The translations under genes were made by a program, and so were the position numbers. A DNA stretch of 64,000 bases from the NCBI GenBank assembly GCA_023229765.1, contig JALNYO010000001.1:66569-130568 (forward strand), written 5' to 3'. The notes beneath the pieces are model-generated. The model was not told where the DNA came from and made no database searches. It saw only the letters and a program-made list of their open reading frames with translations. The stretch comes from Syntrophales bacterium. GTDB taxonomy: Bacteria; Desulfobacterota; Syntrophia; Syntrophales; UBA5619. This document shows, piece after piece, positions 1,209-48,843 of the stretch (positions are counted from its first letter, which is position 1; each line of letters starts with the position of its first letter).

Positions 1209-1299
1209 TACGGTTCACAGCTCACAGCTCATAGTTTACGGTTGCCGGTTGCCGGTTTACGGTTGCCGGTTGCCGGTTGACGGTTTACGGTTCAGAGTT
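1209..1299. repeat. Tandem heptamer array, 13 units of NNCGGTT type (TACGGTT/GCCGGTT/GACGGTT, degenerate CACAGCT units at the left end)
   Basis: Counted unit by unit in the sequence. It fills the whole spacer between the der start codon (1206) and the stop of the four-helix-bundle gene (1292-1294). It is the reverse-complement family of the array at 1668-1821. Confidence 0.9.
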
Positions 1300-1642
1300 T
1301 TTTCAACGAACCATGCAATGATTGAAGCATTTTCGATATTGATTTCAACTCTTGAATTAATTCTTCAGCATCTGAATCAGAAAATATATGAACCTCACGT
1401 GAAATATAAATCTGTGTTCTCAGTTCCGCAGCCGATCCTTGTGCAATATTTACAAACCTTTGGAAATCCGGGATGCTCTTTCTTTCGCTTCCTTCCGCTA
1501 TATTTGATGGAATAGATATGGATGAGCGCAGCATTTGATCTCTTATTCCATAATCGCGGCAATCTCTTAATAATTTATAAAGACGTACTGATAATCTGCA
1601 AGACATTTTCCAAACTTCTAAATCTTCAAAAGAGGATCCCAC
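1292..1642 (-). CDS. Four-helix-bundle protein of the 23S rRNA intervening-sequence protein / Avd-like family
   Basis: 116 aa: FEDLEVWKMSCRLSVRLYKLL...IPSNIAEGSER...FVNIAQGSAAELRTQIYISRE. The DL.VW start and the NIAEG and GS..EL motifs are typical of this family (PF05635-type). The apparent start is GTG. Confidence 0.8.
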   Translation of the reverse strand: MGSSFEDLEVWKMSCRLSVRLYKLLRDCRDYGIRDQMLRSSISIPSNIAEGSERKSIPDFQRFVNIAQGSAAELRTQIYISREVHIFSDSDAEELIQELKSISKMLQSLHGSLKKL

Positions 1643-1667
1643 AAGCTTCCGCTCCCTCGCGCTTTTT

Positions 1668-1821
1668 CAACCGTCAACCGTCAACCGTCAACCGTTAACC
1701 GTCAACCGTCAACCGTCAACCGTCAACCGTTAACCGTCAACCGTCAACCATCAACCGTCAACCGTCAACCGTTAACCGTTAACCGTCAACCGTCAACCGT
1801 TAACCGTCAACCGTCAACCGT
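1668..1821. repeat. Tandem heptamer array, 22 units of CAACCGT/TAACCGT (one CAACCAT)
   Basis: 154 bp is exactly 22 x 7, counted in the sequence. It lies between the rdgC-like stop (1825) and the four-helix-bundle gene start. It is the reverse complement of the ACGGTTN units at 1209-1299. Confidence 0.95.
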
Positions 1822-1824
1822 TTT

Positions 1825-2940
1825 TCACGGTTGGGAAATCCATTTTTCCAGCCGTTCCTGCTCCTTTGCCCAGTCTGCTGTTTGCCGCAGATTCAAAAAC
1901 GAGTGGAAAAGGTTGTCCATTGTTGCCGCGGCCTTTTCAATCAGATAAATCCTCTCCAGGATTTGTCCCTCCCGGTCTTCCTCATCGTCCTCGGAAAGGG
2001 CGGGGAGCTTCATCGACTGAAAATGAAAACGGTCGGCCTTGAAGGTAAATTCCCACTCATCCTGGTCATGGGAGACCCGGAGCCGGGCCGTGGTGATCTT
2101 CTTTCCCTGCCGAAGCGCCTCTTTTCCCTCTTTAAGGTCGGCGTGCAGTCCCTGACAGATAATCGTTTCGGCGTACTCGCCCTCTCCTGATTCCAGAACC
2201 AGCCGCCGCAGAAAAATTATCTCGTCTTCCCCGCCGGCCGCGTTGCCGATAATGCCGTTTCGCTCCTCGCTTTTAAACCAGAGCCAGGTGAGAAACTCTC
2301 TGCCGATGGTCAGTGGATCGATGCCCGCCGGAAGCGATGGCGACGGCGCATCAAGGGTTTGAGACAGTGCGGGCGTTTCTTTTTGGGTAAGGCTTTTTTC
2401 TTCGCTGTTCCAGGGCGCATGGGGAAACAGCGACAATCCAAATGATTCCCGAAACATTTCCTGTAGTTCGCTGCCGATTTTGTCGGAGAGGGTGCAGAAA
2501 GTCAGCAGCCGGTCGGAGACCGACCAGCAGATTTCATAAAAGGCTGGGACAGGCAGGGTTTTTGCAAGCAATTCAAGTCTGACCGACTCACGGATCGCCT
2601 CGCGCTGTTCCCGGTAAAGCTTTTGCTGCCCACTTTCGGCAAGCGCTTTTCGCTCGGCCTCCATTACCCGGATTCGGAAGAGCGAGGGGGGAACAGACTT
2701 GCGGTCTATCCGGAGTGAAAAGAGCATGTATTTGCCCTGTGCATAAGCTGCGTAGGGGAAATCGGTGTCAAGACAGTTTTCAATCGCAATCCAGCCGGCT
2801 ATCTTTTCGTCCGCCGTGCGCCAACTGTCCTGAAAGGCAAAGCGTTTTATCCGTTCGTCAAAGAAATCATTAAAGCCGTCCGGCAGCGGACCGGTGATAC
2901 GATACCGTGAAAAAGTTACTGTTCCCTTCAAAAAACCCAT
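1825..2940 (-). CDS. rdgC: Recombination-associated protein RdgC-like
   Basis: MGFLKGTVTFSRYRITG...GW...RIDRKSVPPS...LYREQREAIRESVRLELLAKTLP...FRESFG follows the RdgC family layout. ATG at 2940 is preceded by GAGGAG, so the track start at 2961 (TTG) is less likely. Confidence 0.6.
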   Translation of the reverse strand: MGFLKGTVTFSRYRITGPLPDGFNDFFDERIKRFAFQDSWRTADEKIAGWIAIENCLDTDFPYAAYAQGKYMLFSLRIDRKSVPPSLFRIRVMEAERKALAESGQQKLYREQREAIRESVRLELLAKTLPVPAFYEICWSVSDRLLTFCTLSDKIGSELQEMFRESFGLSLFPHAPWNSEEKSLTQKETPALSQTLDAPSPSLPAGIDPLTIGREFLTWLWFKSEERNGIIGNAAGGEDEIIFLRRLVLESGEGEYAETIICQGLHADLKEGKEALRQGKKITTARLRVSHDQDEWEFTFKADRFHFQSMKLPALSEDDEEDREGQILERIYLIEKAAATMDNLFHSFLNLRQTADWAKEQERLEKWISQP

Positions 2941-3083
2941 AAACGTCTCCTCTATTTGCAAGGGACACTAACCTACTTGTCGGGATGATGTCAAGGTCTG
3001 TCTGGCGGAATTTCGATAATGCGGTTGGACAAAAGCGTTGTATTATGGTAGGAAAGCGCCCGAAATTATTTTATGGGAATCCG

Positions 3084-37395: not shown

Positions 37396-38421
37396 ATGAA
37401 AATAACTGCATTTCCTCTATTACTGCTTGTTTTTCTCGCCATCGGCTGTGCCCACAGCCCAGTGCCCACTGCTTATCCAAACCAATCGCCTGCTCAACCA
37501 AAGATAGAGCAATCGCCGACTCCTGCCGCCAATTCAGAGGCCCCCTTTCAGGAATCAACCGGAGCAGCGGTTCTGTCGGCGCAAAAACGAGAGAGCGCTG
37601 AGACCGTTTCTTCAAACAGTGTCGGAGGCGGTTTCCCAAGTAATTCCAGCAGCGCCGATGCGGAGCTTGAGGGGGACTATCAGGAGCCGGAGGAGTTGCG
37701 CAAGCCGGGTGATTATCAGAATACAGATAATTCCGAAAAGAACGGCCAAGGGGAAAACGGCGAAAGATTAACCATTGCCGATCCGCTCGAACCTTTTAAC
37801 CGGGCGATGTTTCAGTTCAACGACAAGCTTTACTTCTGGGTGCTCAAACCGGTAGCCCAGGCTTACAAAAAGGTGGTTCACGAGGATGTCCGGGTGGTTG
37901 TCAAAAACTTTTTCTCGAATGCGGCCTTTCCGGCGCGTTTTGTAAATTGTCTGCTGCAGGCGAACCTTACGGGAGCCGCAAGCGAGGTCGGCCGCTTTGC
38001 CCTGAACACCCTGGTTGGATTTGGGGGCATGTTTGATCCCGCTTCCGACAAGGGGATAAATCTGGCGAAACACGGCGAGGATTTTGGGCAGACGCTGGGG
38101 TTATATGGAATCGGACACGGTTTTTACATCCATTGGCCCATATTCGGACCCTCGAGCCCCCGCGACACGATTGGGATGGCCGGGGACGGATTTCTCAATC
38201 CCTTTTCCTATCTCGATCAGTGGTACGAGTCGGCAGGAGTGGGCGCTTATGACAGGATTAATGACACCTCTTTCAGCATCGGCGATTACGAGACGCTCAA
38301 GCAGGCGGCTATCGATCCTTATGTGGCGGTGCGCGACGCCTATGTCCAGTACCGTTTCAACAAGGTGAAGCGCCGAGATGGATTCTACGCCCCTGCAAGC
38401 GGCGGAGAGCCCGAGCGTTAG
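37396..38421 (+). CDS. mlaA: Outer-membrane lipoprotein MlaA/VacJ with a long disordered linker
   Basis: Lipobox LAIGC, then about 115 aa of low-complexity S/P/E/N-rich linker, then the VacJ core DPLEPFNRAMFQFNDKLYFWVLKPVAQAYKKVV...GFGGMFDPA. Confidence 0.88.
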   Translation: MKITAFPLLLLVFLAIGCAHSPVPTAYPNQSPAQPKIEQSPTPAANSEAPFQESTGAAVLSAQKRESAETVSSNSVGGGFPSNSSSADAELEGDYQEPEELRKPGDYQNTDNSEKNGQGENGERLTIADPLEPFNRAMFQFNDKLYFWVLKPVAQAYKKVVHEDVRVVVKNFFSNAAFPARFVNCLLQANLTGAASEVGRFALNTLVGFGGMFDPASDKGINLAKHGEDFGQTLGLYGIGHGFYIHWPIFGPSSPRDTIGMAGDGFLNPFSYLDQWYESAGVGAYDRINDTSFSIGDYETLKQAAIDPYVAVRDAYVQYRFNKVKRRDGFYAPASGGEPER

Positions 38422-45882: not shown

Positions 45883-47079
45883 ATGAAAAAGGTGCAAGAA
45901 TGCAAGGTTCCGGGATTTCTTGCCAATGGAATCCCGGTTGGCATCAAGGAAAACGGCGAGCGGGATTTGTCGCTGATTTTTTCGCGGCAACCGGCAACGA
46001 CGTCCGCGGTTTTTACGACGAACTGTTTCAAGGCTGCCCCGGTGCAAGTCGATATGGAGAGAATCCGCTCCGGGAAGATTCAGGCGATCGTCATCAACAG
46101 CGGTGTCGCCAATGCCGCAACGGGCAAAGAGGGCATAGACGATGCGCTGGCCGTTTCCCGGGCTCTCGCCGCAGAACTTGCCATTGATGAAGAAAAGATT
46201 TTTGTTGCCTCCACCGGCGTCATTGGACGCCGCTTGCCCGTAGGGAAGATCGTGGGCGGAATTAAGGACTTGGTGGCCGGTCTTAATGAAAATGGCATTG
46301 CGGACGCGGAGGCGGGAATCATGACGACAGACCGGTTTCCCAAAATTGCCTTTCGCCGCGGCACGATAGGAGGGTGTGAGATTTCCCTCTGCGGGATAGC
46401 CAAAGGGGCCGGGATGATCCAGCCCAATATGGCGACGATGCTGGCCTTTGTCATGACCGATGCGGCAATAGAAAAGGACGCACTTGATGCCCTGTTTCAC
46501 CGCGCAGCAGCAGGCACTTTTAACGCTGTGACGGTTGACGGCTGTATGAGCACCAATGACACCGCCGTCATTATGGCCAATGGAGTGGCGGGCAACAGGC
46601 CCTTCAAAAAGGGGTTGCACTCGGCCGCGCTCTTCGGGGAGATGCTTGCGGATTTGATGCTGGAGCTTGCCAAAGGTTTGGTACGGGATGGCGAGGGCGC
46701 CACAAAGATGATTGAGATAAAAGTAACCGAGGCGCTTACGCAGAAAGATGCCGAGAAGGTCGCCTACGCCATTGCCAATTCCAATCTGGTGAAGACGGCA
46801 TTTTTTGGAGAGGACCCAAACTGGGGGCGGATTATCTCCGCGGCGGGAGCGGTTGGCGTAGATTTGCCCGTTGAGCAGGTGAAGTTGTTCCTGGAGGATG
46901 TCCCACTTTTTGCAGAAGGCACAGGAGTGTCAGGAAGGGAAGATGAAATAGCGGAAATCATGAAAAGGCCGGAAATAAAAATCGGTATCTCGCTGGGGAT
47001 GGGCAAAAAATCGTGGCGGGTTTGCACATCCGATCTTTCCTTCGACTACGTAAAAATCAACGCGCATTACCATACTTAA
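45883..47079 (+). CDS. argJ: Bifunctional ornithine acetyltransferase / N-acetylglutamate synthase ArgJ
   Basis: PGFLANGIPVGIK...KGAGMIQPNMATMLAFVMTDA (autocleavage ATML site). ATG 45883. The track ORF start at 45673 overlaps secA. Confidence 0.92.
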   Translation: MKKVQECKVPGFLANGIPVGIKENGERDLSLIFSRQPATTSAVFTTNCFKAAPVQVDMERIRSGKIQAIVINSGVANAATGKEGIDDALAVSRALAAELAIDEEKIFVASTGVIGRRLPVGKIVGGIKDLVAGLNENGIADAEAGIMTTDRFPKIAFRRGTIGGCEISLCGIAKGAGMIQPNMATMLAFVMTDAAIEKDALDALFHRAAAGTFNAVTVDGCMSTNDTAVIMANGVAGNRPFKKGLHSAALFGEMLADLMLELAKGLVRDGEGATKMIEIKVTEALTQKDAEKVAYAIANSNLVKTAFFGEDPNWGRIISAAGAVGVDLPVEQVKLFLEDVPLFAEGTGVSGREDEIAEIMKRPEIKIGISLGMGKKSWRVCTSDLSFDYVKINAHYHT

Positions 47080-47265: not shown

Positions 47266-48108
47266 GTGGCGAGTATTTCAATGAAGTTGTTGCTTGAGGC
47301 GGGGGTTCATTTCGGTCATCAGACCAACAAATGGAATCCCAAAATGAAAACGTACATTTTCGGCGCGAGAAACGGGATCTACATCATTGATCTGCAGCAG
47401 ACGGTCGGGCTTTTTCAGACGGCGTACAAGTTTGTTGTGGAGACTGTTGCCGAAGGTGGGGAGCTGCTCTTTGTCGGCACCAAAAAGCAGGCGCAGGAAT
47501 CGATCCAGGATGAAGCCGCGAGGTGCGAGATGCCATGCGTCAATCAGCGCTGGCTGGGCGGCATGCTGACCAATTTTGTAACGATCAAAAAGAGCATTGA
47601 TCGTTTGAACGAACTTGATCAGATGTTCGAGGATGACAGCATCAAGGCTTTTCCAAAAAAGGAAATCCTCGGCATGCAAAAGGACAGGGATAAGCTGATC
47701 AAGGTTTTAGGCGGGATCAGGAAGCTGAAAAAATTGCCCAAATGCCTGTTTATTGTTGATCCCAAGCGGGAGGATATCGCCGTGACCGAGGCGAGAAAAC
47801 TGAAGATACCGATTGTGGCGATGGTCGATACCAACTGCGATCCTGATCTGATCGATTACATAATCCCCGGGAACGACGATGCGATAAGGGCGATTAAACT
47901 GTTTTCCGCCAAGATGGCCGATGCCGTCATAGAAGGCAAAAAACGTTTTGAGGAGCGGCTGCAGGCCCAAAGCGACAAGGAAAGGGTCGCGGCGGATGGA
48001 CCTATAGTCACTTACATAAAAGATGAGAACGATGTTCCTGAAACAGTGGAAAGCAAGGGTTTGGAGGCGCAGGAAAAGGGCGCCGGGGACCTGGAAGCCG
48101 CCCGGTAA
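47266..48108 (+). CDS. rpsB: 30S ribosomal protein S2
   Basis: [38 protein letters not shown]. Confidence 0.96.
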
Positions 48109-48227
48109 ATAGTTAACGGTTGACGGTTAACAGTTGACGGTTAACCGCCGGCAAATATTGAGGTCTTCAATTCAATGCAAACCGGAACCCGGAAACCGTC
48201 AACCGGAAACCGTAAACCGTCAACCGT
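48108..48227. repeat. Inverted heptamer arrays (NACGGTT x5, ~35 nt spacer, NAACCGN x~7) in the rpsB-tsf spacer
   Basis: The left arm 48108-48142 reads AATAGTT AACGGTT GACGGTT AACAGTT GACGGTT. The right arm 48178-48227 reads ...GAAACCG TCAACCG GAAACCG TAAACCG TCAACCGT. This is the same family as 1209-1299 and 1668-1821. Confidence 0.85.
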
Positions 48228-48243
48228 AAGCAAGGAGGATAAA

Positions 48244-48843
48244 GTGGAAATAACATCAGCGATGGTGAAGGAACTCCGGGTAAAGACAGGCGCCGGGATG
48301 ATGGATTGCAAACAGGCGTTGACTGCGGAGAATGGAGATTTTGAAAAGGCCATTGATTTTCTTCGTAAAAAAGGGATGTCTGCCGCAACGAAGCGTTCTT
48401 CCAAGGCGGCGAAGGATGGAATGGTAGCCTCGTACATCCACATGGGGGGCAAGATAGGGGTTATGGTGGAACTTAACTGCGAGACAGACTTTGTCGCGAA
48501 GACCGATGACTTCCAAACCTTGGCGAGGGACATTGCAATGCACATCGCGGCTTCCAATCCCCGCTACATACGCTCGGAGGAGATACCCGCGGAGGCATTG
48601 GAACGGGAAAAGGATATTTACCGCAGCCAGCTTGCCGCAGAGAAAAAGCCCGAGAAAATGTGGGAAAAAATCATGGAGGGCAAACTGAAAAAGTACTATG
48701 AAGAGGTTTGCCTGCTCAATCAGAAGTTCATAAAGAATACCGATGTTTCGGTTGAAACCCTGGTCAACAACATGATTGCCAAGACCGGAGAAAATATTGT
48801 GATCCGAAGATTTTCAAGGTTCCAGTTAGGTGAAGAACTGTAA
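48244..48843 (+). CDS. tsf: Elongation factor Ts
   Basis: GTG 48244 lies 4 nt after AAGGAGGA and gives [26 protein letters not shown]. The track start at 48175 would translate the heptamer array. Confidence 0.93.

Follow-up and report, generated by a model that had tools for sequence, protein, structure and literature searches.

The spacer between rpsB and tsf in the genome of a Syntrophales bacterium is filled by two arrays of tandem heptamers that stand inverted to each other and can pair into a long hairpin. We analyzed this locus within a stretch of 64,000 nucleotides (NCBI GenBank assembly GCA_023229765.1, contig JALNYO010000001.1, positions 66,569 to 130,568), hereafter called the window, and coordinates refer to the window unless another contig is named. 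In E. coli the rpsB-tsf intergenic element is a conserved feature of the operon. The locus raises the question whether its hairpin is a structure devoted to the control of tsf or a copy of a repeat element that entered the spacer. We favor the second answer and give it a probability of roughly 0.6: the hairpin would be a member without an open reading frame (ORF) of a family of hairpin elements that resemble the intervening sequences (IVS) of 23S rRNA as well as REPINs, inserted behind the rpsB stop codon and ahead of the ribosome-binding site (RBS) of tsf.

Structure of the rpsB-tsf spacer

The genes and the parts of the element are arranged as follows:

47266..48108, + strand: rpsB, ribosomal protein S2, 280 aa (ORF list; Pfam PF00318, E = 3.7e-98)
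48108..48142, + strand: 5' arm, five NACGGTT-type heptamers (sequence, pattern search, Tandem Repeats Finder (TRF) period 7, inverted-repeat finder I1-I7)
48143..48178, + strand: centre or loop, 36 nt (minimum free energy (MFE) structure)
48179..48227, + strand: 3' arm, seven NAACCGN heptamers (sequence, TRF, alignment A1)
48232..48843, + strand: tsf with Shine-Dalgarno (SD) sequence AAGGAGG (48232-48238) and true GTG start at 48244, 199 aa (Pfam PF00889, E = 1.1e-43)

The spacer is 135 nt long and consists of left arm, centre and right arm. The TAA stop codon of rpsB (48106-48108) abuts or overlaps the first heptamer, which is degenerate. Read in order, the units of the 5' arm are AATAGTT, AACGGTT, GACGGTT, AACAGTT and GACGGTT; three of the five contain the strict ACGGTT core and two are degenerate. 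The 3' arm reads AAACCGG, AACCCGG, AAACCGT, CAACCGG, AAACCGT, AAACCGT and CAACCGT. Between the arms, the centre opens with AACCGCC, which together with the last 5' unit makes up the palindrome GGTTAACC, and contains a small inner hairpin (the ATTGAGG...TTCAAT region) as well as a spurious ATG at 48175. The heptamer is highly localized in the window: searching for the two-unit pattern ACGGTTNACGGTT with at most one mismatch returned 34 matches against 0.2 expected, and all but one lie within 1238-1821 and 48116-48227, the exception being a single one-mismatch match at 46531. Period-7 arrays in the window were also detected by TRF.

The original prediction of repeats and hairpin in this spacer was borne out. 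According to the inverted-repeat finder the arms span 30–40 nt and are 70–88% complementary in several registers. Folding of the + strand RNA gave an MFE of -56.1 kcal/mol (z = -5.65), which none of 200 shuffled sequences equalled, and in this fold a weak outer pairing is able to reach the SD sequence of tsf. The - strand folds at -62.4 kcal/mol and is therefore the more stable of the two.

The repeats also affect the annotation of tsf. An ORF starting from the ATG at 48175 runs through the right arm and gives tsf a spurious N-terminal extension of 23 residues. Alignment with relatives lacking the insert shows that they keep the tsf RBS and a GTG or TTG start after it, and their tsf gene calls are 199–200 aa long. 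The start at 48175 had already been called wrong from the sequence of the window, and the conserved start downstream of the conserved RBS in the relatives agrees with this. The array had further been said to end 16 nt before the RBS; its coordinates hold, but it ends 4 nt before the SD sequence, and the 16 nt are the distance to the GTG at 48244.

Presence and absence in related genomes

Judged by its RpsB homologs, the organism belongs to Syntrophales. Comparing the rpsB-tsf spacers of related genomes, as had been proposed, gave the following picture (identity of RpsB to that of the window, spacer length, state of the element):

L002: RpsB 97%, 128 nt, element present, right arm one heptamer shorter
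L003: RpsB 93%, 19 nt, element absent
L004: RpsB 94%, 20 nt, element absent
L005: RpsB 93%, 19 nt, element absent
L006: RpsB 93%, 19 nt, element absent
L007: RpsB 91%, 31 nt, element absent

Six contigs without the element represent five distinct relatives, L005 and L006 sharing one RpsB protein. In all five the spacer measures only 19–31 nt and is free of repeats, so that the hairpin is not a conserved regulator. Among the genomes compared, the insert of about 115 nt occurs only in the lineage of the window, which includes a contig with identical RpsB (L001), and in the one relative with 97% identity. The two carriers differ by a 7-nt length polymorphism, as unit 2 of the right arm (AACCCGG) is missing from L002. 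The flanks align cleanly, with GGTAAA before and GCAAGGAGG after the insert; where the element is absent, the sequence is GGTAAAG(T/A)GC(A)AAAAGGAGG, without any heptamer. The relatives' loci, about 85 kb in all, yielded no array of period 6–9 with at least three copies. The rpsB-tsf hairpin is a recent insertion and not a conserved regulatory structure. L001, the only contig found with an identical RpsB, is 999 bp long and ends inside the right array; breaks of short-read assemblies within heptamer arrays were seen there and in many contigs described below.

A gene-bearing cassette with the same heptamer

At the other end of the window the same heptamer flanks a gene for a "23S rRNA intervening-sequence protein" (PF05635/TIGR02436), here abbreviated IVP. 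The original prediction had referred to this locus as a 1.2-1.8 kb cassette, which denotes its position in the window (1215-1821) and not its size. Its features are:

1825..2961, - strand: rdgC-like gene, upstream of the cassette
1667..1821, - strand (transcribed strand): 5' arm, 22 ACGGTTG/ACGGTTA units, starting 3 nt past the rdgC-like stop
1292..1642, - strand: IVP gene, 116 aa, PF05635/TIGR02436 four-helix-bundle protein (Pfam E = 4.8e-34; NCBIfam TIGR02436; PDB 2GSC)
1215..1292, - strand: 3' arm, 8 units (C/A)AACCG(G/T), then degenerate GAGCTGT/GAACCGT units

The cassette is located between the rdgC-like gene and der, and all three genes, IVP included, lie on the minus strand. The stop codon of IVP overlaps the 3' array, whose end is 8 nt ahead of the der start codon (1206). 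IVP is homologous to X. campestris XCC0516 (PDB 2GSC, E = 8.8e-18), a pentamer in the crystal.

Hairpin and cassette have in common the heptamer, the order of a G-rich 5' arm and a C-rich 3' arm, and the position reaching from the upstream stop codon to just before the RBS of the next gene. Like the hairpin, the cassette is lineage-specific: relatives with RdgC proteins 95%, 91% and 78% identical lack it and have spacers of 40, 40 and 75 nt. The assignment of both loci to one family, made before any of these comparisons, therefore stands. We had also considered as evidence that both have the same polarity relative to transcription, but dropped this, since an inverted repeat reads alike on either strand. 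The G-rich/C-rich order of the arms is a real chirality, to which both window loci conform.

The rdgC-like gene of the window ends with CAA CCG TGA (1822-1833), which contains the heptamer CAACCGT, and relatives without the cassette have CAG CCA TAA at this place (L208 5105-5116, L211 3074-3085). The junction was thus rewritten synonymously: codons were turned into the repeat unit while the protein remained unchanged.

Neither site offers a clear target-site duplication when filled and empty sites are compared; the junctions are ambiguous and no transposase is associated. The old 40-nt spacer at rdgC-der has for the most part been replaced, not duplicated. Given the ambiguous junctions and this replacement, insertion with target-site duplication was rejected. 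The element also departs from miniature inverted-repeat transposable elements, which combine terminal inverted repeats with a target-site duplication and originate from a transposase-bearing insertion sequence.

IVP genes are generally enclosed by inverted heptamer arrays

A metagenome scan yielded 80 loci (L128-L207) encoding IVP homologs 38–87% identical. At nearly all of them short tandem arrays are found directly upstream and downstream of IVP, mostly with a period of 7 and sometimes of 6, 8 or 9. The repeat unit varies from locus to locus, and the two sides are reverse-complementary, as in the pairs GGAGAAG x24/CCCTTCT x8, GAACGGA x15/TCCTCCG x16 and GTTGGGA x14/CCAACTC x13. Many 5' units are similar to SD sequences (GGAGAAG, AGGTGAT) and many 3' units to anti-SD sequences.

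We measured the complementarity of the flanks in the 71 IVP loci having both of them. The inverted-alignment score had a median of 17 for cognate flanks and of 8 for non-cognate ones, and 57 loci lay above the 95th percentile of the non-cognate distribution (Mann-Whitney p = 1.7e-35); direct repeats gave a far weaker signal in the same loci. Unit and reverse-complement unit agreed within one mismatch in 19 of 31 loci, compared to 3.8% of non-cognate pairs. Arrays are about six-fold denser beside IVP genes (3.27 per kb) than elsewhere in the same contigs (0.52 per kb). Chirality was consistent as well: of 39 IVP loci, 37 have a 5' arm rich in G and purines and a 3' arm rich in C, with a GC skew of +0.53 vs -0.53. 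The first array usually begins no more than about 15 nt from the stop codon of the upstream gene, and IVP is oriented in the same direction as its upstream neighbor in 59/66 cases and as its downstream neighbor in 53/63. On IMG/VR contigs, flanks of this kind accompany about half of the IVP loci.

Three of the 80 homologs (L130 36-347, L162 and L171) contain internal stops yet stay between arrays, as decaying copies. Exceptions to the rule of inverted heptamers were seen at three further loci: IVP lies between the non-complementary arrays TTAACCG x4 and TTTTCAC ~x25 (L082 370-975), between direct CAACCGN arrays (L113 4715-5480), or inside a long (~80 nt) non-repetitive inverted repeat (L118 2940-3630).

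Gene and arms are transferred together

A search with IVP returned 1659 relatives. Copies 77–90% identical are labelled as Desulfosarcina, Nitrospina, Nitrospirae and Pseudomonadota, far closer than host proteins would be, and many of these contigs are shorter than 2.5 kb, which is what breakage of assemblies at the arrays would produce. The arms follow the gene: IVPs 85–89% identical in Nitrospirae and Desulfosarcina have ACGGTT arms and a homologous leader, and CGGTT units also accompany the IVP that is 87% identical (L128, where the element sits between a queD-like gene and folE2) and one that is 76% identical (L130, a pseudogene). A common heptamer is confined to IVPs at least 75% identical. 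Other arrays on a contig share the unit of its IVP in 27 of 60 cases, compared to 4.4% in the control.

Two of these contigs include gene-less forms. On the Nitrospirae contig L232 (4890-5375; IVP 85%) a hairpin of (ACGGTTN)x5, loop and (AACCGTG)x5 stands directly upstream of the gene, with (AACCGTG)x4 downstream; the order is that of a complete gene-less hairpin, a gene and an arm. In Desulfosarcina alkanivorans (AP021874, L230; 9930-10480 and 16400-16920) ACGGTT units accompany an IVP that is 89% identical, and its leader is homologous to that of the window. Past this IVP follow a second ACGGTT array, a truncated leader with the first codons, and a complementary arm. This second unit is a degenerate ORF-less cassette adjoining the intact one. 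At a distance of 6 kb, a second IVP paralog, 28% identical, has different complementary arms, AAGCTGA/CTTTCAG. Gene-less AGCTGA and GCCCATA arrays of up to 15 units abound in the surrounding exopolysaccharide gene cluster.

We conclude that the gene is transferred together with its arms, that this type of cassette is widespread, and that ORF-less derivatives exist. The suggestion that the rpsB-tsf spacer marks an empty or excised site of the cassette can be judged accordingly. It is not a vacated target, because true empty sites carry zero heptamers; as an ORF-less copy the description fits, and loss of the ORF is plausible in view of the truncated Desulfosarcina cassette.

ACGGTT arrays in other species

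Scanning one genome per species (GTDB) for (ACGGTTN)x4 gave at least 120 loci, and the counts below refer to the matches listed. These come from Bacteroidota, Acidobacteriota, Cyanobacteria, Gemmatimonadota, Desulfobacterota, Verrucomicrobiota and other phyla. An inverted partner within 1.5 kb, mostly at less than 100 nt, was present for 47 of 133 arrays, and gene-less ACGGTT hairpins showed both arm orders equally often (25 and 25). The window has two ACGGTT loci in 64 kb, and other genomes contain several each.

Giant gene-less hairpins with loops of about 20 nt were observed in Desulfobacterales bacterium HSG2 (L030 4860-5117, 21 + 11 units; L056 5277-5681, 15 + 31 units). A conserved Acidobacteriota hairpin family (L011, L048 with two copies, L067, L071, L075, L083) has the structure (AACCGTR)n-GTGACAAG-loop-CTTGTCAC-(YACGGTT)n; its members are located just after stop codons and have the arm order opposite to that of the window. 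Unrelated to the hairpin family is a TGCCCAC x3.4 array at window position 37449-37472, which lies within an mlaA-like coding region and is kept in L002 (321-344).

Relation to described elements

IVS contain an ORF in Leptospira, and short ORF-less forms are found in Salmonella, Yersinia and Campylobacter. PF05635 proteins are relatives of Avd, the accessory protein of diversity-generating retroelements. In the 23S IVS of Coxiella a 28-bp stem surrounds an S23p (PF05635) ORF, which is preceded by tandem GACAGAT heptamers, three or four depending on the strain, and the stem is cut by RNase III, as determined in vitro and by rapid amplification of cDNA ends (PMC4990558). Our elements share with the IVS the terminal inverted repeats in a long stem, an optional PF05635/S23p ORF in the loop, sporadic occurrence among close relatives and the existence of ORF-less forms, together with the variable-number tandem heptamers of the Coxiella stem (PMC4990558). 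The stem of the rpsB-tsf hairpin, built from its terminal inverted repeats, encloses the rest of the element, its carriers are scattered among close relatives, and the loop ORF, missing from this copy, is present in the sister cassette. The differences are that the rpsB-tsf element lies in an intercistronic mRNA spacer, the place of an IVS being helix 25 or 45 in the gene for 23S rRNA, that its arms are pure heptamer arrays, and that its excision by RNase III is a prediction. No rRNA gene and no Rfam family matched in the window, and Rfam searches at the gathering threshold and at E up to 10 returned nothing meaningful.

With the REP/REPIN-RAYT system the family has in common short intergenic palindromes, often inside operons, of which many pairs are gene-less and few bear a gene; repeats of its own family surround the gene, each family is restricted to a paralog or genome, and no target-site duplication is evident. 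The flanked gene, however, encodes a 116-aa four-helix-bundle protein (TIGR02436) and not the cognate Y1/HUH transposase of IS200/IS605 type, and the arms are tandem heptamers instead of one palindrome of 20–40 nt.

Heptameric simple sequence repeats (SSRs) are over-represented in many bacteria; in Xanthomonas about 185 GGGAATC arrays per genome, with 70–75 convergent inverted pairs, have been read as G-quadruplex motifs (PMC4692102). Array #15 of that study, a four-unit GGGAATC array (X. campestris 622956-622983), begins 6 nt past bccP and overlaps the start of XCC0516, an adjacency on which the study does not remark (PMC4692102). Such heptamer families, including the cyanobacterial short tandemly repeated repetitive (STRR) sequences, resemble the window loci as intergenic period-7 arrays of variable length with typically about four units, and the rpsB-tsf arrays show both the tandem period-7 structure and the variation in copy number. 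They differ in having been read in terms of G-quadruplexes or slippage with no link drawn to PF05635 or IVS, and the ACGGTT unit is not prone to form G-quadruplexes.

Pairs of inverted tandem 7–9-nt repeats are also known from G. metallireducens (24, 21 and 8 pairs in classes 1–3), often inside operons such as nifD-nifK, proB-proA and moaA-mosC, and were taken as sites for IHF/HU without test (PMC2700814). The arrangement of these Geobacter 'global regulator binding sites', three to five tandem repeats on opposite strands at variable distance within operons, recurs in the rpsB-tsf spacer with 5 + 7 opposite-strand units around a 36-nt centre. The Geobacter units are different, no IVP gene has been reported inside the pairs, and insertions of the IS110 family are common there. 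In the literature, which we covered incompletely and which is thus no proof of novelty, we found no link between PF05635/S23p genes outside rRNA and flanking heptamer arrays, the Coxiella IVS paper being the sole match.

Interpretation of the rpsB-tsf hairpin

Taken together, these results argue for the family outlined at the beginning, whose arms would be inverted tandem-heptamer arrays and whose full-length form, as in ORF-bearing 23S IVS, would contain a PF05635/TIGR02436 IVP gene in the loop. A copy would have entered the ancestral rpsB-tsf spacer of 19–20 nt, or replaced a few of its bases, in a recent ancestor of the window organism and its 97% relative. It may descend from a cassette that lost its ORF or from a hairpin that was already ORF-less when it spread. 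Slippage would then change the arm lengths in steps of 7 nt. The element is probably selfish or near-neutral, and it may be tolerated because its stem brings stop codon and RBS back together. By analogy with the stems of rRNA IVS, the imperfect duplex of about 35 bp in the rpsB-tsf mRNA is a likely substrate of RNase III; cleavage would split the two cistrons or stabilize them differentially, as a by-product rather than as evolved control.

Several observations weigh against this interpretation. Firstly, an RNA-level role of the stem finds no echo in the 71 loci with two flanks: fold energy favored the sense strand in 30 and the antisense strand in 41 (p = 0.13). Our strand-bias test for G-U pairs was uninformative owing to this split, and with no preference for the sense strand and the more stable fold on the - strand at rpsB-tsf, a G-U signature of RNA-level constraint is missing. 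Template switching or conversion of the DNA could keep the arms complementary, and processing of the RNA is argued from analogy. Secondly, about two thirds of the ACGGTT arrays listed have no inverted partner. Arrays that are ubiquitous regardless of orientation had been named as a finding that would make them generic simple repeats, and outside this genome this is in part the case. An IVP gene within 8 kb was found at only three of the 120 listed loci (L082, L113 and L118; jackhmmer and an 80-sequence hidden Markov model), and the heptamer was consequently rejected as a predictor of a nearby IVP; such arrays also occur in the absence of the cassette. The relation is asymmetric: IVP genes lie almost always in heptamer hairpins, and most heptamer arrays are without IVP. 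In this it resembles the relation of RAYT genes to REP/REPIN. Thirdly, the case for mobility consists of presence and absence among relatives and of the distribution across phyla, with neither a target-site duplication nor a transposase evident. Finally, derivation of this particular copy from the cassette is plausible but gains nothing from its loop: the best local alignment of the loop with the interior of the IVP cassette scored 18, a score reached by 19–26% of controls (p ~0.2). The idea that the loop is a remnant of the IVP 3' end was dropped on these grounds.

Of the other explanations, the one that survives best sees the heptamers as sites bound in trans, either by an oligomeric IVP (1292-1642) or by IHF/HU, and the rpsB-tsf copy as a target that is regulated, protected or mobilized in the manner of RAYT and REPIN. 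Arrays do flank IVP genes, with gene-less arrays of the same unit nearby, and the two 28%-identical Desulfosarcina paralogs each have their own heptamer (ACGGTTG and AAGCTGA) accompanied by gene-less arrays. The restriction of the heptamer to similar IVPs would fit recognition by the protein, as would the pentameric XCC0516, which abuts a GGGAATC array in Xanthomonas; typical arrays have 4–5 units. However, heptamer binding by PF05635 proteins is hypothetical, the same correlations are explained if gene and arms are inherited jointly as a transferred unit, and ACGGTT arrays occur in many of the listed genomes with no IVP in the vicinity of 8 kb. We therefore regard binding in trans as an unlikely account of the hairpin.

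Growth of a generic heptamer microsatellite, in which slippage would have expanded local seeds in situ and the likeness to the IVP cassette would be a coincidence, appears highly unlikely. It could draw on the general excess of heptamer SSRs in bacteria (PMC4692102), on the 7-nt indel between the window and L002, on the predominance of unpaired ACGGTT arrays among the matches listed and on a weak resemblance of the rpsB and rdgC gene ends to the unit. Against it, both arms appear jointly, the spacers of the relatives offering no seed, and inverted arms are not a product of slippage alone. The unit is moreover identical to that of a cassette 46 kb away, none such occurring in the ~85 kb of the relatives, and whole cassettes with ACGGTT arms are common to several phyla.

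The E. coli operon offers the same gene pair and a structured spacer, and the original prediction had proposed by analogy that the hairpin had been recruited to lower or adjust tsf relative to rpsB; the position between the two genes, the very stable mRNA hairpin and its outer pairing towards the tsf SD sequence would suit such a role, but we consider it the least probable of all, because the hairpin is lineage-specific and absent from five relatives (91–94% RpsB) whose short spacers look translationally coupled, because scans of the spacer found no terminator-like or promoter-like site and no U-tract after the hairpin, whereas an intrinsic terminator or attenuator would have a GC-rich stem with a U-run conserved in orthologous spacers, because Rfam has no match, because the same type of element occurs between unrelated gene pairs (rdgC-der here, queD-like/folE2 in L128), and because the two carriers already have arms of different length.

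Implications

In this Syntrophales lineage a ribosomal-protein operon tolerates a hairpin of 115 nt exactly between a stop codon and an RBS. Recognizing it as an insertion removes a tempting but unsupported regulatory story for tsf and corrects the annotated start of this gene. It also joins three observations that were described separately and without explanation: the ORF-bearing 23S IVS, the large orphan family of PF05635 'four helix bundle' genes, and the excess of intergenic heptamers and their inverted pairs in Xanthomonas, Geobacter and cyanobacteria.

A broader proposal is tentative, and we hold it to be possible rather than probable. IVP genes with their heptamer arms might represent hairpin elements moving horizontally across phyla, of which the rRNA IVS would be a special case; each IVP lineage might bind, maintain or mobilize its cognate heptamer as in RAYT-REPIN, and gene-less hairpins might be non-autonomous members that are excised by RNase III from operon transcripts. 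If the link between these observations is true, it would provide PF05635 proteins with a testable function or a context of mobility, and would account for a frequent cause of broken assemblies and wrongly called starts in metagenome-assembled genomes.

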